From Candidatus Doudnabacteria bacterium (GTDB lineage Bacteria; Patescibacteriota; Doudnabacteria; UBA920): a stretch of 64,000 bases of DNA. The stretch is taken from positions 586,853 to 650,852 of the forward strand of contig CAWINB010000004.1 of assembly GCA_963837465.1 (NCBI GenBank), written 5' to 3'. The notes under the pieces are model-generated. The model was not told where the DNA came from, searched no databases, and was given only the letters and a program-made list of their open reading frames with translations. A program made the translations under genes and the position numbers. Within the stretch, counting starts at the first letter, position 1, and each line of letters starts with the position of its first letter. Positions 1,965 to 56,535 of the stretch are shown here, piece after piece.

Positions 1965-1991
1965 TAGTGTCAAGGGTCACCCTTGACACTA
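1965..1991. repeat. 27-bp palindromic repeat element copy A (TAGTGTCAAGGGTCACCCTTGACACTA), preceded by partial TTAGTGTC duplication
   Basis: perfect 13-1-13 palindrome, 21 bp after gnd stop, between convergent gnd and GT4 genes. Confidence 0.85.
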
Positions 1992-2003: not shown

Positions 2004-3167
2004 TTAGTGGCGGCTAAAAAACAGGCCGCGGCATCCCCGCATAATTTTTTTGTAGTAGTTAAGGTAGTGGTTTACTATTACGCCGCCGGAAAAACCCGAG
2101 GCGGCCCGCAGGGCCGCCGCTTGGCCGAGTTGTTTTATCTGTTCCGGGTTTCCCGACAATTCAATAAGTTTTTTGGCAAACCCGCTTATATCGCCTACTT
2201 TGAACAAAAATCCGGTTTTGCCGTTTTGAGTAAATTCGGGGATGCCGCCAACATTGGTGGCCAGCACCGGCTTGCCGTAACTCATAGTCTCCAAAACTCC
2301 CATGCCGAAACTTTCTTCCTCCGAAGTGTAAACGCCAAGATCCGCCGCCGAAATATAATTTTCAATATCCAGGACGTTCTGTTTGACCACAACTTTATTT
2401 TCAATGCCAAGCCGGGCAATTAATTTTTGGTAAGGCGAAAAATCACCGCCCGCCAAAATCAGCAGTTTAATTTTAGGATGGTTTTTGGTTTTGGCTATTA
2501 TTTTCAGCAAATCGGAAATTCTTTTTACAGGACGCAAGTTGGAAAGATGGATGGCCAGGAAGTCAGTATCCTTAATCCTTAACCCTTTACGGACCACGGA
2601 AGCCGAACGTGAGGGCTTTTTGGGGTTATAGAAATTGTGGATGACTTCAATGGGTGTTTTGATATTAAGCACGGACAGGGTTTCTTTTTTCAGGCTGCGG
2701 GAAACCGCTGTCACCCCGCAGGAAAATTCTATGGAATATTTTATGACCGGCATCAGATTTTTGTCCCGTCCGAGCAAAGTAATATCGGTGCCGTGGAGGG
2801 TGGTAATTAAATGGGGGAAGCGGATTTTTTCCTTGTTGGCAATGTCCTTGGCCAAAAGTCCGGCCGTGGCGTGCGGCACGGCGTAATGCGCGTGCATAAT
2901 GTCCAGGCTGTATTTTTGCCCGACTTCCACCATTTTTACGGATAGCGGCAAAGTGTAGTCGGGGTACTTAAACAGGGAGTATTCGTTGAGCGAAACTTTA
3001 TGGAAAAAAATGTTTTTCCTTTTTAAGTCCAGACGGAACGGGGGTTCGTAGCTGATAAAATGCACCTGATGCCCCAAAGACGCCAGCTCATTGCCCAGCT
3101 GGCTGGCCACAATTCCGCTGCCGCCCACGCTGGGATAGCAGACAATTCCGATTTTTAGGTTTTTCAT
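2004..3167 (-). CDS. GT4-family glycosyltransferase (BshA/MshA-like)
   Basis: N-terminal VGGSG sugar-donor fold motif, C-terminal EEESFGMGVLE GT4 signature; ATG at 3167 (MKNLKIGIV) rather than upstream ORF start. Confidence 0.75.
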   Translation of the reverse strand: MKNLKIGIVCYPSVGGSGIVASQLGNELASLGHQVHFISYEPPFRLDLKRKNIFFHKVSLNEYSLFKYPDYTLPLSVKMVEVGQKYSLDIMHAHYAVPHATAGLLAKDIANKEKIRFPHLITTLHGTDITLLGRDKNLMPVIKYSIEFSCGVTAVSRSLKKETLSVLNIKTPIEVIHNFYNPKKPSRSASVVRKGLRIKDTDFLAIHLSNLRPVKRISDLLKIIAKTKNHPKIKLLILAGGDFSPYQKLIARLGIENKVVVKQNVLDIENYISAADLGVYTSEEESFGMGVLETMSYGKPVLATNVGGIPEFTQNGKTGFLFKVGDISGFAKKLIELSGNPEQIKQLGQAAALRAASGFSGGVIVNHYLNYYKKIMRGCRGLFFSRH

Positions 3168-3262
3168 AGTATTATTGATTGGTGGCAATCCCGCTGCGTC
3201 ATTCCGAGGGCAAGCGCGTCCGCGGCCCGGGGAATGCCTTAAAGCCGGAACGAGACTTTGTT

Positions 3263-4030
3263 TTATCCCAACCACGCGTATTCCGCCCGGTCAATTTTTT
3301 CCCGGTCAACAAATTTTACATCCGGAAAATCTCCGGGTTTTAAATATCCTTTTTCGCCTTCGCCGTAAATGTAATGGGTGGCGTGAATCACGGACTGCAT
3401 CCAGACAAACCTTTGGTCGCGCGCGGGGTTCTTCCGCCATTTTTCCACGGCTTGTTCCGGAAGGGTGATATACTTGCCGCCGCCTTCGTGCAGCTTGAGC
3501 TTGTTTTCCAGTAACCGCGCCCTGACAAGCTCGTTTTGATATTCTACATCGGCAAAGTAGTCTTTATCAAGGTCTGCGGCCTGCTCCCTGAAACTTTTGT
3601 CGCCGGAACGCGCGATTTCAACGCCATCGAGCAATCCCATCTTTTGGCACATTTCCAGGCAAAAATCCGCCACGGTTTTGGCATTGACCGACATAAACAA
3701 ATCAATCGCATCTTGGCCGGTAAACCGCGGCAGCTGTTTTTTGATTTCTTCCTTCCAGCCGCCCGGAATTTTTTTGGCGTAAAGCGGCGAGAATTTTTTT
3801 TGCAGTTTATTTTCCTGGATAAAATTCAAGCGGACTTCCGCGCCGGTCCGCCTGTCCGTCATAACGGTAATGGTCTCGCGGTAATCGGCATCGCTGTCAT
3901 GGTAAAAAAAGATGATTTTTCCGCCAATCTCATCGCGCAATTTTTTTGCAGTATTAATCTTGGCGACCAAAAATCGCTTGGGAAAAAACCCGCACGGCTG
4001 CTGGCCGAAACAAATAACAGGGCTGTTCAT
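3263..4030 (-). CDS. hypothetical protein (255 aa), adjacent to GT4 gene
   Basis: long ORF with coding-like composition; no recognisable motif. Confidence 0.5.
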   Translation of the reverse strand: MNSPVICFGQQPCGFFPKRFLVAKINTAKKLRDEIGGKIIFFYHDSDADYRETITVMTDRRTGAEVRLNFIQENKLQKKFSPLYAKKIPGGWKEEIKKQLPRFTGQDAIDLFMSVNAKTVADFCLEMCQKMGLLDGVEIARSGDKSFREQAADLDKDYFADVEYQNELVRARLLENKLKLHEGGGKYITLPEQAVEKWRKNPARDQRFVWMQSVIHATHYIYGEGEKGYLKPGDFPDVKFVDREKIDRAEYAWLG

Positions 4031-7466: not shown

Positions 7467-8072
7467 ATGACTCAATTCCAACCCGGAATCCATTTATCCG
7501 AAGCCGATCCCGTTCTGGCTAAAATTATTTCTCAAATTGAACTGGCGCCTCGAAAACCCCACAAGCGTTATTTTGAAGCGCTCACCGTGGCGATTATCAA
7601 CCAGCAGCTTTCCACCAAAGCCGCGGCCGCCATAGTAAAAAAATTCGTCGCGATTTTTTCCGGAGTCAAATTTCCCACTCCCGATCAAGTCCTAAAAAAG
7701 CGTGACGCTTCCTTGCGCAAAGCCGGGCTGTCGTTCCAAAAAATCGGCTACATAAAAAGTCTGGCCAAATTAATTCGGGAGAGGAAAATAGACTTTAAAA
7801 AATTTGGAAAAATGGATGATGAACAAATCGTCCAGACCTTAATTTTAGTCAAAGGCATAGGCCGCTGGACAGCCGAAATGTTTTTAATGTCCGCTTTGGG
7901 CAGACCCGATGTCTTTAGCCACGGCGATTTGGGCCTGAAAAACGCCATTAAAAAATGGTACAAACTGGACATGAAACTCCATCCCAAAAAATATCACCGC
8001 CTGGTGGAAAGCTGGAGCCCGCACCGCACCTTAGCGGCAAGATACCTGTGGGCGAGCCTTAAAATCAAGTAG
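7467..8072 (+). CDS. HhH-GPD DNA glycosylase (AlkA-like 3-methyladenine DNA glycosylase II)
   Basis: helix-hairpin-helix LVKGIGRWTAEMF followed by catalytic D in GDLGLKNAI; stop codon TAG lies inside the palindromic repeat. Confidence 0.75.
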   Translation: MTQFQPGIHLSEADPVLAKIISQIELAPRKPHKRYFEALTVAIINQQLSTKAAAAIVKKFVAIFSGVKFPTPDQVLKKRDASLRKAGLSFQKIGYIKSLAKLIRERKIDFKKFGKMDDEQIVQTLILVKGIGRWTAEMFLMSALGRPDVFSHGDLGLKNAIKKWYKLDMKLHPKKYHRLVESWSPHRTLAARYLWASLKIK

Positions 8073-8095
8073 TGTCAAGGGTGACCCTTGACACT
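8070..8095. repeat. palindromic repeat element copy B (TAGTGTCAAGGGTGACCCTTGACACT)
   Basis: same element as copy A with centre C/G swapped; first 3 nt are the alkA-like stop codon. Confidence 0.85.
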
Positions 8096-8392
8096 CGGCC
8101 TCACCACTTAAGAGTAAGAACAAAATTTAAAACAAACTGATTTTACGCACAAGAAAAAAAGTTTAATAGGTCTGCTGGGGTGGTACGGGGTCGCGGCTAC
8201 CGTAGGCGCTTATATTTTTGTCAGCTTTTCGCTGATTTCCTCCACAAGCTGGCTGTATCAAATTTTAAATTTTACTGGCGCTTTGGGCATTACTGTAGAA
8301 ACCTATTACAAAAAAGATTACCAGCCGTTTTGGCTGAACTTAATTTGGATGATAATTGCTTTTGTGGCAATTTTGAGCATAATCTTTCGCTA

Positions 8393-22836: not shown

Positions 22837-23874
22837 GTGGAAAATCAAAATTTTAAACCTGATGGAGCGGGAAAAAAAAGTAAAATTTTACTTTTTGCGC
22901 TCTTGGCTTTTGATATTCTGCTTTTGGTAACCTGTATTTTGCAAATAGTCTGGCCGCGCGTCAGTTTTAATAACAGCAGTTTTTTAAATCCTAAGGGTTT
23001 AATAGCTCAGCAGGAACGCGCGCTCATAGTAAAGGCCGTTTTAATAATGCTCATTGGCACAATTCCGGTTTACATTCTGATTTTTTTCTTTGCCTGGAAA
23101 TACAGGGCCGACAGGACGGAAACAAAATATTCTCCGGATTTGGAGGGTAAGGCATTGGGCGGAATCGCGCTTTGGGCGCTTCCCGCTTTAATTATTTTAG
23201 CGCTCTCGGTCATAAACTGGAAAAGCACCCACTTGCTGGATCCCTCTAACACAATCGCTTCCGGCGTGCCGCCCATAACCATAGAGGTTGTCGCTTTGCA
23301 ATGGAAATTTTTATTTATTTATCCGAAACAAAATATCGCTACCGTAAATTTTATTGAATTCCCTCAGGGTACGCCCCTGAATTTTGAGCTAACCGCGGAC
23401 GCGCCGATGAGCTCATTTTGGATTCCGCAGCTCGGCAGCCAAATTTACGCCATGGCCGGAATGCAAACACATCTAAACCTTATTGCCGACCAGCCGGGAG
23501 ATTTTAAAGGTATGGATACGGAAATAAACGGGACGGGCTTTTCGGGCATGAAATTTATTGCCAGGTCAACTTCGCGGGCGGACTTTGACCAATGGGTGGC
23601 ATCGGTAAAACAATCCGGCGCCAAGCTTAATCTGGATGATTACAATCAACTGGCCGAACCCAGCCAGAACAACCCCCAGGCTTACTATTCGTCCGTCGAT
23701 CCCGGTCTGTATGATACAATTATGATGAAAAATATGATGCCCATGACCCAGGCGCGAATGGAGCAGATGAGCAGTTTGGGATTGGGTGCCGCGAATTCTT
23801 CCGCAACGACTATGCCGGGAATGAATATGGGCAGTTCGTCGCCAATGAACATGCAGGGGATGGACATGAAGTAG
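22837..23874 (+). CDS. cyoA: cytochrome bo3-type quinol oxidase subunit II (no CuA ligands) with Met-rich C-terminal tail
   Basis: COX2 fold blocks WKFLFIYP, FWIPQLG; CuA Cys/His replaced (FSGMKF); tail with multiple MxM/MxxM. Confidence 0.8.
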   Translation: MENQNFKPDGAGKKSKILLFALLAFDILLLVTCILQIVWPRVSFNNSSFLNPKGLIAQQERALIVKAVLIMLIGTIPVYILIFFFAWKYRADRTETKYSPDLEGKALGGIALWALPALIILALSVINWKSTHLLDPSNTIASGVPPITIEVVALQWKFLFIYPKQNIATVNFIEFPQGTPLNFELTADAPMSSFWIPQLGSQIYAMAGMQTHLNLIADQPGDFKGMDTEINGTGFSGMKFIARSTSRADFDQWVASVKQSGAKLNLDDYNQLAEPSQNNPQAYYSSVDPGLYDTIMMKNMMPMTQARMEQMSSLGLGAANSSATTMPGMNMGSSSPMNMQGMDMK

Positions 23875-23912
23875 AACCTATTTTTCAAATAGGTTCTAAG
23901 TAGTCCATCTTA

Positions 23913-25979
23913 TTGGCTGGAAAAACTATGGAACATTTTCTTTTAGGAAAACTTACCTGGGACGCGCTGCCGCACGAGTGGTTTACCATTGGCGGGACGG
24001 TTGCCATTGGCATTGGCGGCTTGTTTGTCGCGATTCTGTTAACCTGTCTTAAACGCTGGAAATGGCTATGGAAGGAATGGCTTACGTCCACCGATCCCAA
24101 AAAAATCGGGGTCATGTACATTGTTGTGGCCTCGCTGATGCTGTTTCGCGGCGCGGTTGACGCGGGAATGATATGGCTGCAACAGTCGCTTTCCGTTGGA
24201 ACATCGCAAGGATATTTAAACGCCGACCACTTCCAGCAAATTTTTACCGCGCACGGCTCCATTATGATTCTTTTTGTGACCATGGGTTTTTTGTTCGGCC
24301 TGATGAACTATATTATCCCCCTGCAAATTGGCGCGCGCGATGTTGCCTTTCCGCTTCTAAATACTTTGAGTTTCTGGCTGTATGTCGCCGGGGCCGTGCT
24401 GATTAACCTGTTTTTTGTGGTTGGCGGACAATTCGCCGCCGCCGGCTGGCTGTCCATGCCGCCGCTGTCGGAACTGGCCTACAGCCCGGGCGTGGGCGTG
24501 GATTATTGGATATGGAGTTTGCAAATCTCCGGCCTGGGCAGTTTGCTGTCCGGAATTAATTTTCTTGTAACCATCGTAAAAATGCGCGCTCCCGGAATGA
24601 CGCTGATGAAAATGCCCATGTTCGCCTGGACTACTCTTTGCAGCATGATTCTGGTTATTTCCGCTTTCCCTATTCTTACCATGACCCTTATCCTGCTTTC
24701 CCTGGACCGGACTTTGGGCATGCATTTTTTTACTTCCAGTTTTGGCGGCAATCCCATGATGTACGTCAATTTAATTTGGTCGTGGGGACATCCGGAAGTT
24801 TATATACTCATGATTCCGGCCTTTGGTATTTATTCGGAGGTCGTAACTACCTTCAGCAGGAAAAAATTGTTCGGCCACACCGCGGCTGTGGCAGCGACTA
24901 TTGGCATTACGCTTATGTCTATGCTGGTCTGGCTGCACCATTTTTTTACCATGGGCGCGGGAGCCGATGTAAACGCTTTCTTCGGCATCATGACCATGAT
25001 TATCGCCATTCCCACGGGCGTGCTGGTCTACAATTGGCTGGCGACTATGTTTAGGGGACGGATTACTTTTGCCACACCTATGTACTGGTTTATGGGTTTT
25101 GTCTGTACTTTTACCATGGGCGGCATGGCCGGCGTGCTGATGGGTATACCCGGGGCGGATTACCTGCTGCACAATACTTTATTTTTAGTGGCGCATTTTC
25201 ATACCATGGTCATCGGGGGCGCCCTGTTCGGGATTTTTGCCGGCATTACCTACTGGTGGCCCAAGGTCACGGGGTTTCGGCTGAACGAACGGATTGGCAA
25301 ATATGCTTTTTGGCTTTGGATAGTCGGATTTTTTACCTCGTTTTTACCGCTCTATATTCTGGGTTTTATGGGAGCTACCAGGCGCATGGACCATTACGAC
25401 CCTTCCACCGGCTTTCAACCTCTGTTTATAATCGCGGGATGCGGTTTTGTAATTATTTGCTGCGCCGCCGCCGCGCAAATCTGGCAGATTATAGTTAGCG
25501 TTATGGAACGCAAAGCAACCGTTGATACTACCGGCGACCCGTGGGATGGACGCACGCTTGAGTGGGCAACGTCATCCCCGCCGCCGATTTACAATTTCGC
25601 CATTATACCTACAGTAACTACGCGGGATGCTTTTTGGGAAGCCAAACAATCAAGTGTCATTGCGAGCGCGGCCGAAGCAATCTTTCCATCGACGGGAAAG
25701 ATTGCTTCGTCGCCAGGTAAAGCCCTGGCTCCTCGCAATGACACTCGGCTGGTCTATGAAGACATCATGATGCCAAAAAATACGGCCATGGGGATATACA
25801 TATCCGGTTTCGTTTTCCTGATGGGTTTCGCCCTGGTCTGGCATATTTGGTGGCTGTTGGTTGTGGGATTAATCGGCGCGGTTGTTTGCGTTATAGTTCG
25901 CGCGTTTGAGGAAGAAACGGAATACGTAATCCCGGCGGCGGAAGTGGAGAGGATGGAAAAAGATAGTAAAAGAAAATAG
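23913..25979 (+). CDS. cyoB: heme-copper quinol oxidase subunit I
   Basis: 12+ TM helices, WGHPEVYILMIPAFG and WAHHMF-type (HHFFTMG) signatures. Confidence 0.9.
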   Translation: MAGKTMEHFLLGKLTWDALPHEWFTIGGTVAIGIGGLFVAILLTCLKRWKWLWKEWLTSTDPKKIGVMYIVVASLMLFRGAVDAGMIWLQQSLSVGTSQGYLNADHFQQIFTAHGSIMILFVTMGFLFGLMNYIIPLQIGARDVAFPLLNTLSFWLYVAGAVLINLFFVVGGQFAAAGWLSMPPLSELAYSPGVGVDYWIWSLQISGLGSLLSGINFLVTIVKMRAPGMTLMKMPMFAWTTLCSMILVISAFPILTMTLILLSLDRTLGMHFFTSSFGGNPMMYVNLIWSWGHPEVYILMIPAFGIYSEVVTTFSRKKLFGHTAAVAATIGITLMSMLVWLHHFFTMGAGADVNAFFGIMTMIIAIPTGVLVYNWLATMFRGRITFATPMYWFMGFVCTFTMGGMAGVLMGIPGADYLLHNTLFLVAHFHTMVIGGALFGIFAGITYWWPKVTGFRLNERIGKYAFWLWIVGFFTSFLPLYILGFMGATRRMDHYDPSTGFQPLFIIAGCGFVIICCAAAAQIWQIIVSVMERKATVDTTGDPWDGRTLEWATSSPPPIYNFAIIPTVTTRDAFWEAKQSSVIASAAEAIFPSTGKIASSPGKALAPRNDTRLVYEDIMMPKNTAMGIYISGFVFLMGFALVWHIWWLLVVGLIGAVVCVIVRAFEEETEYVIPAAEVERMEKDSKRK

Positions 25980-26035
25980 GTTCTAATAGGATCGGCGCTC
26001 ATAGGAATATCCTAATATCCAATATTATAAACCAA

Positions 26036-26635
26036 ATGGCAATTGATACAAATCAACAAACGATAAATAATTCTGCGCATCATGTCGACAAAACCATCTT
26101 CGGGTTTTGGGTCTACTTGATGACGGATTTGATAATGTTCGCCGCGTTGTTTGCCTGCTACGCGGTGCTGCGGACAAATACCTTTGGCGGTCCGGGTGCC
26201 GGACAACTTTTAAGTTTAGACGGCGCGCTGGCGGAAACTTTGATATTGCTCGCCAGCAGTTTTACCTGTGGCTTGGCAATGCTGGCGGTTCATAAAGGCG
26301 ACAAAAAACAGGCGCTGGTTTGGTTTGGGGTAACAGTGCTTTTGGGGCTTTTGTTTTTGACCCTGGAATTGCGCGAATTTTCCGGACTTATAGCCGGCGG
26401 CAACAGCTTTACCAGCAATGCCTTCCTGTCATCCTTTTTCGCGCTTGTGGGCACGCACGGGCTGCACATATCCATTGGCTTATTATGGATGCTGGTTTCC
26501 ATGGTTATGGTTTGGCGCCGCGGCCTTACGCCGGCCATTATAAGCAAGCTTACGCGCTTAAGTTTATTCTGGCATTTTTTGGATATTGTCTGGATTTTTA
26601 TTTTTACCATTGTATATTTATATGGGCACATTTAA
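26036..26635 (+). CDS. cyoC: quinol oxidase subunit III
   Basis: 5-TM subunit III pattern, C-terminal HFLDIVWIFIFT. Confidence 0.8.
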   Translation: MAIDTNQQTINNSAHHVDKTIFGFWVYLMTDLIMFAALFACYAVLRTNTFGGPGAGQLLSLDGALAETLILLASSFTCGLAMLAVHKGDKKQALVWFGVTVLLGLLFLTLELREFSGLIAGGNSFTSNAFLSSFFALVGTHGLHISIGLLWMLVSMVMVWRRGLTPAIISKLTRLSLFWHFLDIVWIFIFTIVYLYGHI

Positions 26636-26954
26636 ATTATATTTAACAGGATTTGCGGCATCCATCATACTCACTCTGGCGGCATATTTCGCCGTGGCCG
26701 CGCATATTTTAAGCGGTTCGATGCTGATTGCCGCTATTATGGCGCTTGCGATTATTCAGCTCATCGTCCAGTTGATATTTTTCCTGCATTTGGGCAAAGG
26801 ACAGGATTCAACCTGGAATTTGGTGGTGTTTTTTTCCACAGTCACGCTTGTGTTAATAATTGTCGTAGGCTCCCTCTGGATTATGAACCACTTAAACTAC
26901 AATATGACCCCCCAGGACATCAATAATTATATGAGCAGCCAGGACGGGATATAA
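26622..26954 (+). CDS. cyoD: quinol oxidase subunit IV
   Basis: 3-TM small subunit immediately after cyoC; ATG at 26622. Confidence 0.6.
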   Translation: MGTFKLYLTGFAASIILTLAAYFAVAAHILSGSMLIAAIMALAIIQLIVQLIFFLHLGKGQDSTWNLVVFFSTVTLVLIIVVGSLWIMNHLNYNMTPQDINNYMSSQDGI

Positions 26955-27041
26955 AAGAATTGCGGGATATTCAGATATTGCGGATATTGCCGACAGCATA
27001 ATATCCTAATATCTAAAGTATTTATTAATGTCTGGTAACGT

Positions 27042-27923
27042 ATGTTTAGACTTTACTACCACCTAACCAAACCCGGAATAATTTACGGCAATGCCATAAC
27101 TGCCATTGCCGGGTTTTTTTTGGCTTTAAATTCAAATGAATATTTAGTGTCAAGGGTGACCCTTGACACTAAACTTTTTTTTGCGATGCTGGTTGGGCTG
27201 TCTTTTATAATCGGTTCTTCCTGTGTTTTTAACAATGTCTGGGACGGGGATATTGACGCAAAAATGGAGCGGACAAAAAAACGGGCAATGGTTACCGGAG
27301 AGATCGGCAAAATATCGGCGATTATTTTTGCGAGCATATTGGGTTTGCTTGGCGCGTTCATCTTAGGCCTGCTCACTAACCCCTTAACTCTAATCGTCGC
27401 CCTGCTGGGCATGTTTTTTTATTTGATTTTATACACTCCGCTGAAGCGCAAAACCGCATACGGTACTTTAATCGGCGCGATCGCGGGAGCTACGCCGCCC
27501 GTTGTTGGATACGTTGCCGTCACCAATAATTTTGATACCGCGGCATTGCTGCTGTTTTTTATTTTGGTGTTTTGGCAAATGCCGCATTTTTACGCCATTG
27601 CCATCCGCCGGCTGGATGAGTATAAAGCCGCTTCAATTCCGGTACTGCCGGTTAAGGAGGGTATACATAATACAAAAATAAAAATGCTCGCGTACATTGC
27701 CGCGTTTATTTTAGCCACCGCGGGGTTAACTTATTTTAAATATACAAGCTATATGTATTTAGTTGTTATGATTTTACTCGGGCTATATTGGTTGTGGATT
27801 GGAGTTAGTGGTTTTAAAAAAACATCCGATGATAACAAATGGGCCAGCAAAATGTTTTTGTCGTCGCTTATAATCCTGACCTTGTTTTCGGTTGTCGTTT
27901 CATTTGGAACTCGTTTGCCATAA
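27042..27923 (+). CDS. cyoE: protoheme IX farnesyltransferase (heme O synthase) carrying in-frame palindromic-repeat insertion
   Basis: UbiA-family motifs NNVWDGDIDAKMERT and second Asp-rich region; 9 TM. Confidence 0.85.
   Translation: MFRLYYHLTKPGIIYGNAITAIAGFFLALNSNEYLVSRVTLDTKLFFAMLVGLSFIIGSSCVFNNVWDGDIDAKMERTKKRAMVTGEIGKISAIIFASILGLLGAFILGLLTNPLTLIVALLGMFFYLILYTPLKRKTAYGTLIGAIAGATPPVVGYVAVTNNFDTAALLLFFILVFWQMPHFYAIAIRRLDEYKAASIPVLPVKEGIHNTKIKMLAYIAAFILATAGLTYFKYTSYMYLVVMILLGLYWLWIGVSGFKKTSDDNKWASKMFLSSLIILTLFSVVVSFGTRLP
27145..27171. repeat. palindromic repeat element copy C, inserted in-frame inside cyoE/ctaB
   Basis: TAGTGTCAAGGGTGACCCTTGACACTA translated in gene frame as LVSRVTLDTK, an extra segment in the heme O synthase. 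Confidence 0.85.
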
Positions 27924-28064
27924 CAATACCAATGCATCATCCCGAATGCATCTGAGGGATCCCTTAAAGATGACAGTTTATCAAGGATTGGGGATAAGGA
28001 ATTCCTCTCTCGGCTGCCACTGTCTGGGAATGGTAATAGTAAAAAGCTTGAGTTTTTAAAATTA

Positions 28065-28340
28065 TTGCGCTATGATATTTATATGATTCTAATTTTCCAC
28101 ATCATCGTTGCCTTATCCAGCCTGGCTTACACCGGCTATGTTTTTCTTTTCCCTTCAAAACGGGGACTTTACGCGGCTTACGGTCTTGTCGCTCTGACTG
28201 TGGCCAGCGGTACCCTGCTTTTAATCCAAAACCCCGGTTCCATGCGCCAAGTCTGTACTACCGGATTGGTTTATTTAGCTGTTGTAACAGTTGGAATAAT
28301 CTTTGTCCATCATAAATTGGCGACAAGAGCGCAATCTTAG
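28065..28340 (+). CDS. small 3-TM membrane protein
   Basis: ORF, hydrophobic. Confidence 0.4.
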   Translation: MRYDIYMILIFHIIVALSSLAYTGYVFLFPSKRGLYAAYGLVALTVASGTLLLIQNPGSMRQVCTTGLVYLAVVTVGIIFVHHKLATRAQS

Positions 28341-28407
28341 TTTTACAACAACTAAAAAGGATTCCCCTAGGTTGCCTAGGGGAATCCTTTTTAAATTTCA
28401 ACGATCT

Positions 28408-29916
28408 TTATTCCACATGCACATGCACGTTATCGCTGCCTTTTTGCACGTTAATCCAAAATGAGGTGATGACGCCAACAAATACCAGGACGGCGGCGGT
28501 CACAAAAACGTAAGCGTAAGCGGAAACCTGGGCTTTTAAGATGATCAGGGCGATGAATTTTTGGTAATCCGAAGGGTTGGTGCTGTTTAAAATGCTGTGG
28601 GCGTTTATTTTTAACACGTAACTGTTGGTGGCGTTGGTTAAGATAGTGCTGAAAATCGCAATGCCAAAAGCGCCGGCCACGTTCCTGACCAAGGCTAAAA
28701 TAGAAGAAGCCACGCCGATTTCCTGGGTCGGCACCACCGCGGCAATAACGTTAGTTCTCTGGGCCATGCCAAAGCCCAGGCCAAAAGACATAATAGTCAG
28801 CGGTATCATAATATCCAAAGCCGTGGAACGGGGATCCAAACCACGCAGTAAAAAAATACCCAGAGCCGCCACAAAAGTACTGGCCGCTATTACGTATTTG
28901 GGTTTAACTTTTCCGGTCAGCGCCCCGCCAATTGGCGCGGCGGCCATAAGCCCTACCGCAAGAGGGATAAACAAGTAGCCGCTTTGGGTGGCGGAGTCGC
29001 CCAAAAAAGTCTGGGCAAAAATCGGGATTAGAAATATGGCGCCGTAAAGGCCCATAAAAACGATAAAATTGTTGAGCAGGGTGTTAACGAAGGCGCTGAT
29101 CTTAAAAAACTTTAAGTCCACAATCGGCTCCGGTACCAGCTTTTCTATCCACAAAAATATCCAGGTAAATGCCACTATCGCGGCGTAACAAACCCAGGCC
29201 TGCCAGGAACTCCAGCCCCAGGCGGGCCCCTGGTCCAGTATCAAAACCAAAGCGGAAAGCGCCGCGCCCAAAGTAATGGCACCCCACCAGTCAAAAAATT
29301 TGGTCTTTTTTTCGGATACGGATTCCTTAACGAAAGTTAAAGCCATAAACAAACCGAGCAGGCCAATGGGCAAATTAACCAAAAAAACCGAGCGCCAGCC
29401 GAAGTTGTCTATAAGCGGGCCGCCAATAAGCGGGCCAAACACGGCCGCGGCCGCGAACGAAGAAGACCAAATCCCCAAAGCCTGGGCGCGTTCTTTTTCG
29501 CCCTTAAAAGTTACGGCCAAAATAGCCATGGCAGTGGGGTAATCGGCTGAACCGGCAATGGCCTGGATAACCCTAAATGATATCATGGAGCTTAAATTCC
29601 AGCTAAGTCCGGCCAGTACCGAGCCGAAAATAAAAATGGAAAAACCCAAGATGTAGACTTTTTTGCGGCCGATGGTATCGCCCAGCTTGCCCCAAATCGG
29701 CACGAAAATGGCATTGGCCAGAATGTAAGCCGTGGCAATCCAGCCGGCGGCGGAGACGGAAATATTAAAGTCGGTGATAATTTTCGGCAGCGCCAAATTT
29801 ACAATGGTCTGGTCCAGCCGGCCAAGAAAAGTCCCGACGATAACCGTCAGGAGTATCCACCATTTGAGACTGGAAGATTCTTTTGCGGGTTCGGTTAGGG
29901 TCGTTGTGGTAGCCAT
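28408..29916 (-). CDS. MFS drug:H+ antiporter, 14-TM DHA2 (EmrB/QacA-like)
   Basis: MFS signature GKLGDTIGRKK, 14 predicted helices. Confidence 0.85.
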   Translation of the reverse strand: MATTTTLTEPAKESSSLKWWILLTVIVGTFLGRLDQTIVNLALPKIITDFNISVSAAGWIATAYILANAIFVPIWGKLGDTIGRKKVYILGFSIFIFGSVLAGLSWNLSSMISFRVIQAIAGSADYPTAMAILAVTFKGEKERAQALGIWSSSFAAAAVFGPLIGGPLIDNFGWRSVFLVNLPIGLLGLFMALTFVKESVSEKKTKFFDWWGAITLGAALSALVLILDQGPAWGWSSWQAWVCYAAIVAFTWIFLWIEKLVPEPIVDLKFFKISAFVNTLLNNFIVFMGLYGAIFLIPIFAQTFLGDSATQSGYLFIPLAVGLMAAAPIGGALTGKVKPKYVIAASTFVAALGIFLLRGLDPRSTALDIMIPLTIMSFGLGFGMAQRTNVIAAVVPTQEIGVASSILALVRNVAGAFGIAIFSTILTNATNSYVLKINAHSILNSTNPSDYQKFIALIILKAQVSAYAYVFVTAAVLVFVGVITSFWINVQKGSDNVHVHVE

Positions 29917-30004
29917 AGATTTTGAGATAATCGGAGAAATCAGAGAATCAGAAAAATCGGAAGCTCAGATTCTCTGATTTCTCCGATTTTTCTGGAGTTC
30001 CAGT

Positions 30005-50386: not shown

Positions 50387-50818
50387 ATGACTCAGGAAAT
50401 CCTCGACTACATAAAAAGCCAACGAGTAGGTGTTCTGTCCCTTGAAATGCTTGATGGTTCGCCCCATGCTTCAACGGTGCATTTTGCGAACTCCGAAAGC
50501 CCGTTAATATTTTTATTTGAAACGTATCGTCAATACCGTAAATGCGAAACTTTATTCGGGAGAAAAATAAGCCGCGCCTCTATGGTAATTGGATCGGATG
50601 AAAGTAATATGAAAACATTGCAGATGGACGGAGAAGCAAGGCTCACGCATGAAGAAGAAAAAGAAAAATTATTCTCAAAAATTTATTTGGAAAAATTTCC
50701 TGAAAAAAAAGAAAAATCCAAAGACCCTAAAGTTGTGTCGTTCCTGTTTATTCCAAAATGGTGGCGTTTTACAGACTGGACGAAACCGGAAGGAAAGTTT
50801 ATTTTAACCTCGAAATAA
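50387..50818 (+). CDS. pyridoxamine 5'-phosphate oxidase-family FMN-binding protein
   Basis: split-barrel pattern MTQEILDYIKSQRVGVLS...HAST. Confidence 0.6.
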   Translation: MTQEILDYIKSQRVGVLSLEMLDGSPHASTVHFANSESPLIFLFETYRQYRKCETLFGRKISRASMVIGSDESNMKTLQMDGEARLTHEEEKEKLFSKIYLEKFPEKKEKSKDPKVVSFLFIPKWWRFTDWTKPEGKFILTSK

Positions 50819-50823
50819 TTTTA

Positions 50824-50850
50824 CAGTGTCAAGGGTCATCCTTGACACTG
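50824..50850. repeat. palindromic repeat element copy D (CAGTGTCAAGGGTCATCCTTGACACTG, one arm mismatch)
   Basis: between convergent PNPOx-like and CHAP genes. Confidence 0.8.
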
Positions 50851-52837: not shown

Positions 52838-54985
52838 ATGGATTTATCTTCCCTTAATAAAAAACAGCAGGAGGCTGTCACGGCCCCGCTCGGTCCCGTG
52901 CTGGTTTTAGCCGGCCCGGGCAGCGGCAAAACCAAAACATTAAGCCACCGCATAGCTTATATTATAGAGAACAAAATGGCGGCTCCCGCCAGCATTTTGG
53001 CCTTAACCTTTACCAACAAGGCTTCCAAGCAAATGAGGGAACGGGTTGGCGTGCTTTTGGCCCGCTACAAATCCGCGGCAGAACAGCTGACTATGGGCAC
53101 GTTCCATTCCGTTTGCGCCAAAATCCTGCGCCACGAAATAGCCCGTCTCGGTTATTCTTCTGATTTTGTGATTTTTGATACCGAAGACCAGCACAAAGTT
53201 TTGCGCGAGATTTTGGAGGACCTGCGCGTAGACAACAAAAAAATGCCCATACCGCTTTTTGGCGCGCTTATTTCCCGCGCCAAAAACCTGCTGCAGCTGC
53301 CATCGGAACTGGACTTGGGCCTGGAAGGGCCGATAAATGAACGCCTGTCCGAAGTTTACGCCCGCTACCAGGACAGTCTCTATAAACAAAATGCCCTGGA
53401 TTTTGACGACCTGCTGATGCTGACCGTAAAAATTTACGAGAATTTTCCGCCGGTTTTGCAAAAATACCAGAAAAAATTCAGTTATATATTGGTGGATGAA
53501 TACCAGGATACCAACCTGGCCCAATACCGACTGCTGCAATTATTGGCCGCGCGCAGGAACCTGTTTGTAGTCGGCGACGATGCCCAGAGCATTTACAAGT
53601 TCCGCGGCAGCGACATTACCAACATCTTAAATTTTGAAAAAGATTATCCGGAAAGCCTGGTTGTCAAACTGGAACAGAATTACCGTTCCACCAAAAATAT
53701 CCTGGAAGCGGCGCAAAAAGTAATTGAGCTTAATCCCGAACAAAAATTCAAAACCCTGTGGACGGAAAATCCGCGGGGGGAAAAAATCATATTAACCTGC
53801 GAACAGGATGAGCGCGCCGAGGCCGAGTTTGTGGCGCGCAATATAGTTAAGTTGGCCTCCAATGAACCGGCAGGGGAGCTGGAGTACGAGGCGGAGGTTC
53901 AGGATAATGCCAAGCCCGTTTTTTCCATTTTGGACCGTTTTATTAAAGCCAAAAGAATACAGGCGCAGTACACGTCGTCTTTTGGCCGTGGCCTATTACC
54001 CCAACTTCCCAAAAAGCATGAAAGCCTAAAAGAGTTTTGCGTGCTTTACCGCACCCACGCGCAATCGCGCAACATTGAAGAAGCCTTAATTGAAGCCTCT
54101 ATTCCGTACCAAATTGTTGGAGGTTTAAAATTTTACGAACGCAAGGAAATTAAAGATGTCCTGGCCTACTTGCGCCTGACCATAAACTTCCGCGACCTGG
54201 TTTCGCTTAAACGGGTGATTAACGAACCGCCGCGGGGCATTGGCGATAAATCTTACAGCATCATCCGTGAACACATGCTTAATTTGGGAGAGCGCGATAA
54301 GGAAATATCCATTAAAGATTTTAGGGTCGGTTTTGCCGGGATAAAAATCCAGCCCAAGGCTTGGCAGGCAGCCCAGGATTTTTTCCTCCTGATTGAGGAA
54401 TTTTCGGGCTTCAGCGAAAAGTTCGCTTTGCCGGAACTGATGCGGCTGATAGTCAAAAAAACCGGCTACGAAAAATATTCGCGCGATGGCAGCGAAAAAG
54501 GCGAATCGCGCCATGAAAACGTCCAGGAGCTGATTAACGTGGCCCACAAGTACCACAACTTGCCCTGGCGCGAGGCTTTGCGGGAATTTTTGGAAGAAGT
54601 CGCTTTGATTTCCGAACTTGACCAGAAAGACGAGGGTAAGGACGCCGTAACTTTGATGACTTTGCACAGCGCCAAGGGTCTTGAGTTTGACAATGTTTTT
54701 TTTGTGGGGCTGGAAGAAGGCATATTGCCGCATTCCCGAAGTTTAATGGACCCGGCGGAACTGGCGGAAGAAGTCCGCCTGGCTTACGTAGGCTTGACCC
54801 GCGCCCGCAAACGCCTGTTTTTGGTTTACACCCACAGCCGCCGGGTTTTTGGCAACGTGCAAATTAACCAGCCGTCGCGCATTTTAAAAGTCTTGCCCAA
54901 AGCGCAGGTGGATTATCGGGGGATGGCCAAGGAACATTTTAAGGATGAGGAGGGAGAGTTGGTGGTGGAGAAGTTGGATTTTTAA
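52838..54985 (+). CDS. pcrA: ATP-dependent DNA helicase PcrA/UvrD
   Basis: Walker A AGPGSGKT, SF1 helicase motifs (DEYQDTN, VGDDAQSIY, YRS). Confidence 0.9.
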   Translation: MDLSSLNKKQQEAVTAPLGPVLVLAGPGSGKTKTLSHRIAYIIENKMAAPASILALTFTNKASKQMRERVGVLLARYKSAAEQLTMGTFHSVCAKILRHEIARLGYSSDFVIFDTEDQHKVLREILEDLRVDNKKMPIPLFGALISRAKNLLQLPSELDLGLEGPINERLSEVYARYQDSLYKQNALDFDDLLMLTVKIYENFPPVLQKYQKKFSYILVDEYQDTNLAQYRLLQLLAARRNLFVVGDDAQSIYKFRGSDITNILNFEKDYPESLVVKLEQNYRSTKNILEAAQKVIELNPEQKFKTLWTENPRGEKIILTCEQDERAEAEFVARNIVKLASNEPAGELEYEAEVQDNAKPVFSILDRFIKAKRIQAQYTSSFGRGLLPQLPKKHESLKEFCVLYRTHAQSRNIEEALIEASIPYQIVGGLKFYERKEIKDVLAYLRLTINFRDLVSLKRVINEPPRGIGDKSYSIIREHMLNLGERDKEISIKDFRVGFAGIKIQPKAWQAAQDFFLLIEEFSGFSEKFALPELMRLIVKKTGYEKYSRDGSEKGESRHENVQELINVAHKYHNLPWREALREFLEEVALISELDQKDEGKDAVTLMTLHSAKGLEFDNVFFVGLEEGILPHSRSLMDPAELAEEVRLAYVGLTRARKRLFLVYTHSRRVFGNVQINQPSRILKVLPKAQVDYRGMAKEHFKDEEGELVVEKLDF

Positions 54986-54987
54986 TA

Positions 54988-55070
54988 GTTTACGAAGTAC
55001 GAACAGGTACGAACTTACGAATCAATGACGCATCGTTTCGTAAGTTCGTAAAGCTTCGTACTTCGTAAAC
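54988..55070. repeat. 83-bp nested palindrome built from four TACGAA repeats and four TTCGTA repeats
   Basis: outer 16-bp arms GTTTACGAAGTACGAA/TTCGTACTTCGTAAAC, inner 14-bp arms GTACGAACTTACGAA/TTCGTAAGTTCGTA; between pcrA stop and rsmA start. Confidence 0.85.
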
Positions 55071-55084
55071 TCATTGGTTAACTT

Positions 55085-55981
55085 ATGGACACAGAGCAGC
55101 TCAAAAACCTGTTAAGGAGCTATGGCCTAAAGCCCAATTTTACCTATGGGCAGAATTTTTTAATCGATGATTTTGTTTTGCGGGATATCGCGGACGCGGC
55201 GGAAATAACATCAAGCGACAGGGTTTTGGAAATCGGGCCGGGCATTGGCAATTTAACCCGCCTGTTGTGCGAGCGCGCCGGATTTGTTTTAAGCATTGAA
55301 AAAGACCCAAAATTTTTCCCTGTCCTTAAGGCGCTAAAAAAGGATTTCCCCAAAAACTTCCGTTTTGAAATCGCCGACGCGCTGGAATTTAATTTCCAGG
55401 ATGTGTTGCGTAGCGTGCCCATAAATGGGCACGCTGCACTTCGAGCGCAACTAACCCCTAACCCCTATACCCTAACCCCTGGTTACAAAGTTGTCGCCAA
55501 CATCCCGTACTACATCACCGGAAAAATTTTGCAAATGTTAATGACCGCGAAATTTAAACCAAGCTCAATAACTATATTGACCCAAAAAGAAGTCGCGTAT
55601 AATTTGGCGGCGCAGGCGGGCAAGCTGGGCATACTGGCAATTTCCGTACAGCTGTTCGGCCGGCCAAAATTAATACAAACGGTTTTGGCCAGAAGTTTTT
55701 ATCCCGCTCCCAAAGTTGACAGCGCCATTGTAAAAATAGATTTGTACAGGGAGCCAAAATATAAAATCACCGACGAAAAAAGATTTTTTAAAATTGTTAA
55801 AGCCTGCTTCTCCGGCAAACGAAAACAAATCCACAACACCCTGGTTAACAACCTGCATTTGGAAAAAATCCGCGCGATGGATGTTTTAGCCGAGTTAAAA
55901 ATAAATCCCGCGGCAAGACCGCAGGAGTTGACGATAGAGCAATGGGTAACATTAACAGATAAAATTTCAAATTTCAAATGA
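55085..55981 (+). CDS. rsmA: 16S rRNA (adenine1518/1519-N6)-dimethyltransferase
   Basis: SAM motif LEIGPGIGNLT, VVANIPYYIT; contains in-frame heptamer-repeat insertion. Confidence 0.85.
   Translation: MDTEQLKNLLRSYGLKPNFTYGQNFLIDDFVLRDIADAAEITSSDRVLEIGPGIGNLTRLLCERAGFVLSIEKDPKFFPVLKALKKDFPKNFRFEIADALEFNFQDVLRSVPINGHAALRAQLTPNPYTLTPGYKVVANIPYYITGKILQMLMTAKFKPSSITILTQKEVAYNLAAQAGKLGILAISVQLFGRPKLIQTVLARSFYPAPKVDSAIVKIDLYREPKYKITDEKRFFKIVKACFSGKRKQIHNTLVNNLHLEKIRAMDVLAELKINPAARPQELTIEQWVTLTDKISNFK
55451..55480 (+). repeat. CTAACCC-like heptamer repeats (telomere-like CCCTAA register) inside rsmA
   Basis: CTAACCCCTAACCCCTATACCCTAACCCCT; encodes LTPNPYTLTP insert. Confidence 0.85.
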
Positions 55982-56037
55982 ATGACTTAATTTAAAAATC
56001 AGGATTTTATTTGAAATTTGAAATTTGAAATTTGTAA

Positions 56038-56535
56038 TTAGTTTATAAGCCGGACTTCATCTCCGGTTTTTATTTTGTTTTCCGCCGTCCACCCGGCGTT
56101 AACCTCCACCACCCAGTTGACAGGCGATGGGGGATAGTACAGCGGAAGGTTTTTCTGACAGCCGACAGCCGACAGCTGACAGCTGGGCGCCGGAACGTTG
56201 GCAGTTATCCCGATGACTTTATTTTTATAAATCCAAATCATATCCAGATTAAATTTCATATCCGGCATCCAAAACGCCGGGTCAACCGCCGCGTCGCTGC
56301 CAAAATCAAACAACATGCCTTGGCTGTTTTCCATAGACGCCCTGTCCGACAAACCCTGGGCTTCCGTCCGCGGCGTGTCGGCAATTTCCACCATCAAAAC
56401 CTGACTACCTATTTGCAGCCGATGCGTGTAGTTGTAAGCCGGTGAAAAATTGGCGGAGCTGGGCGATATAATCGGCCTTGAGCTGCAGCCGGCAGCCAAA
56501 AATATTAAACCGATTAAAACAATGTCCCTTTTCAT
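56038..56535 (-). CDS. DUF192-domain lipoprotein
   Basis: lipobox LAAGCSS after signal; DUF192 block GMLFDFGSDAAVDPAFWMPDMKFNLDMIW. Confidence 0.65.
   Translation of the reverse strand: MKRDIVLIGLIFLAAGCSSRPIISPSSANFSPAYNYTHRLQIGSQVLMVEIADTPRTEAQGLSDRASMENSQGMLFDFGSDAAVDPAFWMPDMKFNLDMIWIYKNKVIGITANVPAPSCQLSAVGCQKNLPLYYPPSPVNWVVEVNAGWTAENKIKTGDEVRLIN
56157..56185. repeat. tandem heptamer (GACAGCY)x4 inside DUF192 gene
   Basis: GACAGCCGACAGCCGACAGCTGACAGCTG. Confidence 0.85.

Follow-up and report, generated by a model that had tools for sequence, protein, structure and literature searches.

A 27-nt palindrome is translated in frame within the heme O synthase gene (cyoE/ctaB) of a Candidatus Doudnabacteria bacterium. 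The gene lies in a 64-kb stretch of an 868,218-bp contig (GenBank assembly GCA_963837465.1, contig CAWINB010000004.1), which we call the window. Based on dispersed copies in the window and in related genomes, we consider this palindrome to be probably a copy of a 27-nt family of the repetitive extragenic palindromic (REP) type of Patescibacteria, which is linked in relatives to a gene for a REP-associated tyrosine transposase (RAYT)-like protein and survives within genes by in-frame tolerance. We assign it to the REP type because, at four loci of related genomes, copies of it stand on either side of an IS200-like Y1 (RAYT-type) transposase gene. In the following, L numbers denote loci and P numbers homologous proteins; the coordinates of features in the window are collected in Table 1.

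The palindrome lies in an intact heme O synthase gene

The open reading frame (ORF) 27042-27923 scores 341 bits against the NCBIfam equivalog model of heme o synthase (NF003348, cut-off 285) and 291 bits against TIGR01473 (cut-off 210), and it also matches Pfam UbiA. We aligned its product with 29 homologs drawn from a set of 5.8 billion proteins. In this alignment, residues N64, N65, D68 and D72 of the Asp-rich NNxxDxxxD motif are invariant, and the window protein keeps all 54 invariant columns. By equivalog score, motif and fold (see below), the ORF encodes a heme O synthase (CyoE/CtaB, UbiA superfamily), and it is the final gene of a cyoABCD-E cluster. The initial annotation, which was made from the sequence alone and had named a respiratory cofactor enzyme as the host, is borne out by the NCBIfam scores.

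The same annotation had placed the palindrome at 27145-27171, which proved to be exactly the conserved 27-nt unit described below. Around it, perfect pairing extends to 29 nt (27144-27172, TTAGTGTCAAGGGT-G-ACCCTTGACACTAA, with one central base). With up to three mismatches this 29-mer occurs at three places in the window, and dinucleotide shuffles of the window give none. As proposed, the element is read in frame as LVSRVTLDTK (L35-V-S-R-V-T-L-D-T43, followed by K44), and the ORF continues through it without interruption and with every invariant family residue retained.

The closest homologs show 72-77% identity over the full length and are 284-288 amino acids (aa) long. Directly after the first transmembrane region (TM1), the window protein has eight residues more than 25 of the 29 aligned homologs, including the six closest; these 25 share a short loop, A-SKG-HF-D/N-..-L, at the position of the insert. 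In DNA alignments with three element-free orthologs (L026, L028 and L029), native loop codons stand opposite the palindrome. The earlier claim of an extra segment between TM1 and the NNxxDxxxD motif therefore held for the location but not for the size, since an insertion of ~15 residues had been expected and the alignment gives eight (8-9 residues in all); the KLFF that follows is the native start of TM2 and not part of the extra segment. E. coli CyoE presumably carries the same ASKG motif, and for this reason the short loop is probably the older state. As judged from these alignments, a dispersed palindromic repeat has been inserted here in frame, and the segment is not ancestral sequence. 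An assembly artefact was ruled out, as the same in-frame arrangement is present in independent JGI, NCBI, ENA and Logan assemblies.

The insert is predicted to form a loop between TM1 and TM2

An AlphaFold2 model of the window protein, built on the homolog alignment, reached a predicted local distance difference test score (pLDDT) of 94.6 and a predicted template modelling score of 0.91. Its only weak interior block comprises residues 31-40 (mean pLDDT 59, with residues 35-37 below 50), which sit between the helices 11-30 and 43-67. A Foldseek comparison with solved structures of the UbiA family gave a TM-score of 0.79 to both 7bpu and 6m31, and 4od5 and 4tq3 also match; a sequence search of the PDB with the window protein gave no match at E ≤ 0.001. 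In the model the insert lies in the TM1-TM2 loop, in agreement with the suggestion that it maps to a loop, which the alignment supports as well.

In UbiA enzymes the Asp-rich motif is on the cytoplasmic side, and Lys and Arg are abundant both at the N-terminus and in the segment that follows TM2. From these flanks, the cytoplasmic motif and the positive-inside rule, the TM1-TM2 loop would be placed on the outer, extracytoplasmic face, opposite the Asp-rich active site. We read the ctaB copy as a passenger that the enzyme tolerates and that contributes a short disordered loop; it may be functionally neutral.

The repeat forms a family in Doudnabacteria-like genomes

We scanned one genome per species, metagenomes and viral contigs for the core pattern GTGTCAANGGTNACCNTTGACAC. 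The genome scan returned 21 loci: 16 stem from Candidatus Doudnabacteria metagenome-assembled genomes (MAGs) or from one unclassified MAG, which has eight loci with nine copies, three from Saccharibacteria MAGs, and two from bins labelled Prevotellaceae (L013) and Eubacteriales (L021), which may be chance matches or binning errors. A further 37 loci were found in the metagenomes, and the viral contigs contained no match to the core pattern. Most occurrences of the family fall in Doudnabacteria-like genomes, and Saccharibacteria MAGs contain it too.

Merging of the scans gave 66 distinct copies of a unit composed of TA, 23 nt and TA. The arms measure 13 nt, and at stem positions 3-13 the two arms form Watson-Crick pairs in 61-66 of the 66 copies. 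Paired variation affects one position of the stem (40 copies with G-C, 22 with A-T and four mixed), and all four nucleotides are found at the centre. In a comparison of 65 copies, position -2 is T in 41, position -1 is A in 52 and position +1 is T in 58; outside the 27-nt unit there is no conserved motif. About 55 of the 66 copies are located outside recognisable genes, most of them just past stop codons. The same holds for the window, where copies A, B and D follow the stop codon of a plus-strand gene at a distance of 0-23 nt, two of the three between convergent genes. An Rfam search of 26000-29000 found no family over the element and only two weak, chance-level matches near 28325-28451.

Copies of the repeat bracket a Y1 transposase gene

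At L016, two copies 680 bp apart bracket an ORF of 209 aa (2894-3523) that matches Pfam Y1_Tnp with 32.9 bits (cut-off 23). In total, four separate genomic contexts (L016, L067, L068-70 and L071-72) carry the palindrome on both sides of an IS200-like Y1 gene of 206-209 aa; the homologs in the latter three show 63-77% identity and have different gene neighbourhoods. One flanking copy precedes the ATG of the Y1 gene by 24-35 nt, and the other either supplies its stop codon (TAG or TAA at the end of the element) or lies 6 nt past it. The loop in L071-72 is asymmetric (GGGGCAACC vs GGTTGCCCC), and one flanking copy is the reverse complement of the other. All of 15 Y1 homologs share H80-x-H82 and Y140-I-H-x-N-P without change. 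A protein search returned 3125 matches, two distant ones of which (P0194 and P0215) are named 'REP element-mobilizing transposase RayT' by JGI. We read the Y1 protein as a divergent relative. A Y1 HUH transposase gene bracketed by its own repeat is the arrangement described for REP/RAYT systems (PMC3733652, PMC5581495, PMC6006769).

We propose that the family is mobilized by its RAYT-like enzyme. By analogy to E. coli TnpA(REP) and the TnpA of IS200/IS605, the enzyme would recognise the hairpin in single-stranded DNA and cut and rejoin at the hairpin foot. Such reactions would seed copies of the repeat across the genome, and the ctaB copy would have landed in the TM1-TM2 loop as a passenger.

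One frame of the unit is open on either strand

Eleven of the 66 distinct copies lie in frame inside recognisable genes, namely ctaB (three copies), purQ (three genomes) and the genes for RNase R, guaA, an ABC transporter, topA and a proA-like aldehyde dehydrogenase, which are functionally unrelated to each other. All of them read (L)VS[R/K]VT[L/F]DT, the only stop-free frame of the unit, as the other two contain TAG or TGA. The unit measures nine codons, and its variable centre is the wobble (third) base of a valine codon. Since the unit is palindromic, it offers the same three frames, and the same open frame, on either strand. In RNase R and the ABC transporter the repeat lies between Pfam domains. 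We suggest that in-gene copies survive through this combination of a nine-codon length, one open frame, a wobble centre and a position in a permissive loop or interdomain linker.

The ctaB and purQ sites are occupied repeatedly

Two further ctaB homologs, P0010 (61% identity; L001 188-210) and P0093 (58%; L002 1240-1262), have a similar peptide at the same spot. Their DNA contains the same palindrome, altered symmetrically at two positions (TTAGTGTCAAAGGTCACCTTTGACACTAA), and the ctaB copies are perfect palindromes in genes with only 56-62% residue identity. A third homolog, P0041, retains a decayed copy (21 of 30 nt). A neighbor-joining tree of 120 ctaB homologs, for which the loop was masked, nests every element-bearing gene among relatives that lack the element: the window gene with P0002 and P0004, P0093 with P0073, P0010 near P0114, and P0041 with P0026. 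The element is found at the same codon of ctaB in at least three lineages, or four if the decayed copy of P0041 is counted. Five other ctaB homologs have unrelated insertions in the same loop.

The pattern is even more pronounced in purQ, where the REP peptide is present between RWVD and SPWL in at least 14 of the 120 closest homologs (P0241-P0360), in both the R/L and the K/F variant and in part decayed. At the same site, dozens of homologs have other insert families (of the PPLTKGGRGG type and the VIARSASDEAI..KKIAS..ALAMT type), and about 45 of the 120 lack an insert. This loop of purQ is an insertion hot spot in Patescibacteria. The purQ repeats themselves (L011 1849-1871, L022 586-608 and L059 1387-1409) are identical at 26-27 of 27 nt, compared with 63-78% for the coding flanks.

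The source of P0093 is also of note: contig DASRAQ010000059.1 of GCA_035638135.1 (L003, 2478 bp) is labelled 'Candidatus Limnocylindria bacterium' at NCBI, and it is probably mis-binned, because the closest relatives of P0093 are Patescibacteria proteins.

Evaluation of alternative explanations

Several observations weigh against a RAYT-mobilized REP family with passenger copies. The Y1 protein has a single NCBIfam match, to NF047646 ('REP-associated tyrosine transposase'), and its scores of 35.2 and 33.4 bits stay well below the cut-off of 80. A tblastn search found no RAYT homolog in the window, which is only a part of its contig. The tag of the repeat is TAG, conserved as a portion of the palindrome, and not the canonical 5' GTAG: no more than 9 of 65 copies have a G at the first position, with copies A (on the minus strand) and B of the window reading GTAG. 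Copies are sparse, with about one per 16 kb in the window and still fewer in relatives. In ctaB, the four lineages show net gains of +24, +18, +15 and +9 nt and never of 27 nt, and in all four the last codon of the element (K or E) precedes the invariant G52 by eight residues (manual count). Random insertion followed by selection does not by itself account for the common end at one codon, the gains below 27 nt and a peptide colinear with the native loop. No clean pair of a filled and an empty site, which would define the boundaries of the element, its target and any duplication, is present among the compared loci; for guaA (L020 vs L068), the relative has a different, longer loop at the element site and the pair is uninformative on the empty site. 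To our knowledge, mobility in vivo has been demonstrated neither for this family nor for any other REP.

That the segment is merely an ancestral loop variant of heme O synthase, or that the real start of the gene lies downstream of it, is a reading to which we give practically no weight. Three other homologs do have the same or a similar peptide at this position, but they share the DNA palindrome or a decayed copy of it, so that the objection of a peptide without a palindrome fails, and they are not each other's closest relatives. Moreover, 25 of the 29 aligned homologs lack the segment, and the identical 27-mer recurs in intergenic DNA and in unrelated genes. Residues 1-28, upstream of the element, align with all homologs as conserved family sequence, indicating that the start codon lies upstream of the element and answering the objection of a downstream start. 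Alignment, shared palindrome, other hosts and tree together refute this reading. It is also highly improbable that the repeat is a minimal miniature inverted-repeat transposable element, which would consist of two terminal inverted repeats only and rely on an IS630/Tc1-type DDE transposase with TA target duplication. The TA on both sides of the 23-nt core in most copies (see the counts at -1 and +1 above) would fit such an element; however, 23 nt plus a 2-nt duplication make 25 nt, a length that is incompatible with the 11 copies in frame. In addition, the only gene repeatedly bracketed by the repeat encodes a Y1 HUH transposase, no longer element with these ends is present in the window, and no associated DDE transposase was found. 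A transcription factor operator was ruled out, since copies are found between the ends of convergent genes and not in promoter regions, and the in-gene copies were acquired by insertion. Readings as CIRCE, parS, dif, an uptake sequence or a CRISPR repeat do not fit the sequence, the copy pattern and the flanking of a transposase gene.

Two further explanations assign a role to the site itself. The in-gene copy could be kept for a function in cis, as an internal attenuator or terminator, as an RNA-stability hairpin, tuning how strongly ctaB is expressed as the terminal gene of the cyo operon, or as a binding site for a protein such as a RAYT-like enzyme or a nucleoid protein. A consensus scan scores the hairpin with its 14-pair stem and the following CTTTTTTTTG as terminator-like on the plus strand, and the RNA of the ctaB element folds with -24.2 kcal/mol (z = -5.8 vs shuffles). 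The perfect palindromes in diverged ctaB genes, the purQ elements that are better conserved than their flanks, and the position of intergenic copies at 3' ends, where RNA elements would be expected, are in line with such a function. On the other hand, copies that were inserted recently or homogenised with one another could likewise be better conserved than their flanks. The host genes have no functional relation, no T-run accompanies many of the intergenic copies, and a terminator distinct from the repeat comes after copy D. An attenuator is a minority reading, because the T-run is missing after the ctaB copies of L001 and L002, and the T-run in the window is native TM2 coding sequence. Overall we regard a role in cis as improbable. 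Rather unlikely, but deserving some attention, is a target preference, by which native loop DNA would resemble the repeat and the site would be hit or converted repeatedly, with the repeat partly replacing the native loop. It would account for the 3' boundary at the same codon in four lineages nested among element-free relatives, for net gains of 9-24 nt instead of 27 nt, and for the colinearity of the REP peptide S-K-V-T-F-D-T-K with the native consensus S-K-G-H-x-D-x-K; the use of one purQ site by both sequence variants of the element points in the same direction. Native TCAAAGGGTG in L029 resembles the repeat arm TCAAGGGTG. This resemblance was seen post hoc, though, with a chance probability of roughly 0.01 at best; for purQ, no native DNA for the same check was among the fetched loci. 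Furthermore, no target motif is conserved past the TA flanks in 65 copies, and both sites also take unrelated insertions, which argues for a permissive site rather than for targeting. We likewise see only a limited chance that the repeat homes to, or is converted into, a few specific hairpin-like codon positions of essential genes (such as ctaB TM1-TM2 and purQ RWVD..SPWL) and is kept perfect there by selection on DNA or RNA or by RAYT homogenisation. If so, this would be a site-specific, frame-compatible nine-codon cassette system across Patescibacteria, and the in-gene copies would not be inert passengers.

Comparison with known repeat systems

As a REP-type family, the repeat resembles the REP/RAYT systems ('REPtrons', such as E. 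coli REP-TnpA(REP) and the Pseudomonas REPINs) in being a short dispersed palindromic unit in the range of 20-40 bp, with copies mostly just 3' of genes and between convergent genes, and in the single Y1 HUH gene that is bracketed by the repeat, with inverted flanking copies in L071 and conserved HUH and Y-x-H-x-N-P motifs. It differs from them in its perfect 13+1+13 palindrome, which lacks a bulge or asymmetry in most copies, in the TAG tag, the low copy number and the divergent RAYT-like protein (33-35 bits vs 80), and in its Patescibacteria hosts and high in-frame share. With the IS200/IS605 elements (TnpA, Y1 HUH) the family shares the Pfam family Y1_Tnp, and hairpin recognition in single-stranded DNA was borrowed from them as a model. 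In contrast to them, the repeat is not the end of an insertion sequence, the transposase gene occupies one place per locus, and no conserved 4-5 nt target is present beside the copies.

The initial annotation had compared the insert with the Rickettsia palindromic elements (RPEs), which are about 100-150 bp long (RPE-1 type). Similarities are the in-frame palindromic insert, the gene that stays open and the added surface peptide. The unit described here measures only 27 nt, lacks a CGTC end and any sequence similarity to RPEs, occurs in another host lineage and is linked to a RAYT-type transposase gene, so the comparison holds as an analogy only. The statement that in-frame colonisation of genes is otherwise rare was overstated: intragenic REPs with GTAG or CGTC tags that keep the frame have been catalogued inside ORFs of known proteins in several phyla, and the CGTC tag is also that of RPE-4 and RPE-6, two short REP families of Rickettsia (Di Nocera, De Gregorio, Rocco 2013, PMC3733652). 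In two Xanthomonas species, different REPs are even found at about the same recB site (PMC3733652). Our copies are likewise REP units in ORFs of known proteins with the frame kept; compared with the published examples, they are single nine-codon units in genes for a respiratory cofactor and for purine, proline, RNA and DNA topology functions, and the same codon of one gene is occupied in at least three lineages.

Intragenic in-frame insertion of REPs is a known kind of event that is found here in a new group of organisms. A literature search for REP/RAYT systems in Patescibacteria (candidate phyla radiation) and for palindromic repeats in Doudnabacteria found no description, and the family appears to be undescribed in this lineage. 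A REP/RAYT system in Patescibacteria would reside in tiny, densely coded genomes with scarce intergenic space, where more copies end up in proteins, as suggested by the in-frame share of 11 in 66. The peptide VS[RK]VT[LF]DT and its DNA provide a marker that annotators and structure modellers could mask, and the occupied positions chart permissive loops in conserved enzymes. Interest is raised by the recurrence at the same codon and by the conservation of in-gene copies above the background, and the ctaB and purQ sites offer a concrete test case for the target preference of REPs.

Features of the window and further palindromic sequences

Table 1. Position of the repeat copies, the host gene and associated features in the window
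Feature	Position	Strand	Remarks
REP copy A	1965..1991	none	Between 6-phosphogluconate dehydrogenase-like gene (stop 1944) and convergent glycosyltransferase gene (stop 2004)
REP copy B	8070..8096	none	HhH-GPD glycosylase-like gene 7467-8072 uses the TAG of this copy as its stop codon
cyoA, cyoB, cyoC, cyoD (quinol oxidase subunits II, I, III, IV)	22837..26954	+	Directly 5' of ctaB
Heme O synthase gene cyoE/ctaB	27042..27923	+	293 aa, intact, REP within the predicted TM1-TM2 loop
Codons 29-36 (LNSNEYLV)	27126..27149	+	Eight residues without counterpart in the closest homologs (protein alignment)
REP unit in ctaB, 27 nt, TA-GTGTCAAGGGT-G-ACCCTTGACAC-TA	27145..27171	none	Encodes L35-T43 of heme O synthase
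T8 run	27176..27183	+	Native Leu-Phe-Phe codons opening TM2; follows the hairpin and a C, terminator-like together with the hairpin
REP copy D, decayed (4 mismatches)	50824..50850	none	6 nt past the PNPOx-like gene 50387-50818, before a separate terminator hairpin

A degenerate half-copy (1952-1964) adjoins copy A. Composite forms of the repeat were also observed in other loci. At L052 (7531-7593), a full REP is nested inside the loop of another one, tandem truncated copies are located at L019 (5547-5589) and L045 (395-430), and full copies in L018, L025 and L050 are immediately succeeded by an additional terminal half-unit, C(T)TTGACACTA. These nested and partial copies may have been left by the reactions that cut and join the DNA. 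At L052 7551-8323, two copies 750 bp apart bracket a gene of 184 aa that belongs to the Fic/DOC family and is not a transposase, and the same arrangement is found in L055.

The cyo operon itself contains a second in-frame palindrome. Within cyoB (ORF 23913-25979), a composite palindrome of 93 nt or 31 codons (25653-25745) consists of the outer arms AGTGTCATTGCGAG / CTCGCAATGACACT and an inner hairpin CGAAGCAATCTTTCC / GGAAAGATTGCTTCG, encoding the peptide SVIASAAEAIFPSTGKIASSPGKALAPRNDT. It is unrelated to the repeat in ctaB and missing from the COX1 of L028 (659 aa vs 688 aa). Thus, two genes of one operon carry in-frame palindromic inserts of different families. In close relatives, the cyo operons are broken up by other genes: an N6/N4 DNA methyltransferase gene is located between COX1 and COX3 in L028 (2206-2871), and an AAA_18 gene together with a nucleotidyltransferase/HepT-like pair between cyoD and ctaB in L026 (2171-3500). 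Directly 3' of ctaB, the window has an ORF of 91 aa (28065-28340) without a Pfam match, and a gene of similar size (85-91 aa) is present at this place in L026, L027, L028 and L074.

Longer inverted repeats are found elsewhere in the window. One of them (54987-55071) lies between the ORFs 52838-54985 and 55085-55981 and has 41-nt arms that are 85% complementary, with four TACGAA motifs per arm. Two further long intergenic inverted repeats are located at 55962-56039 and 29929-29994 (AAATTTCAAATTTCAAAT / ATTTGAAATTTGAAATTT, and AATCGGAGAAATCAGAGAATCAGA with its complement, respectively).

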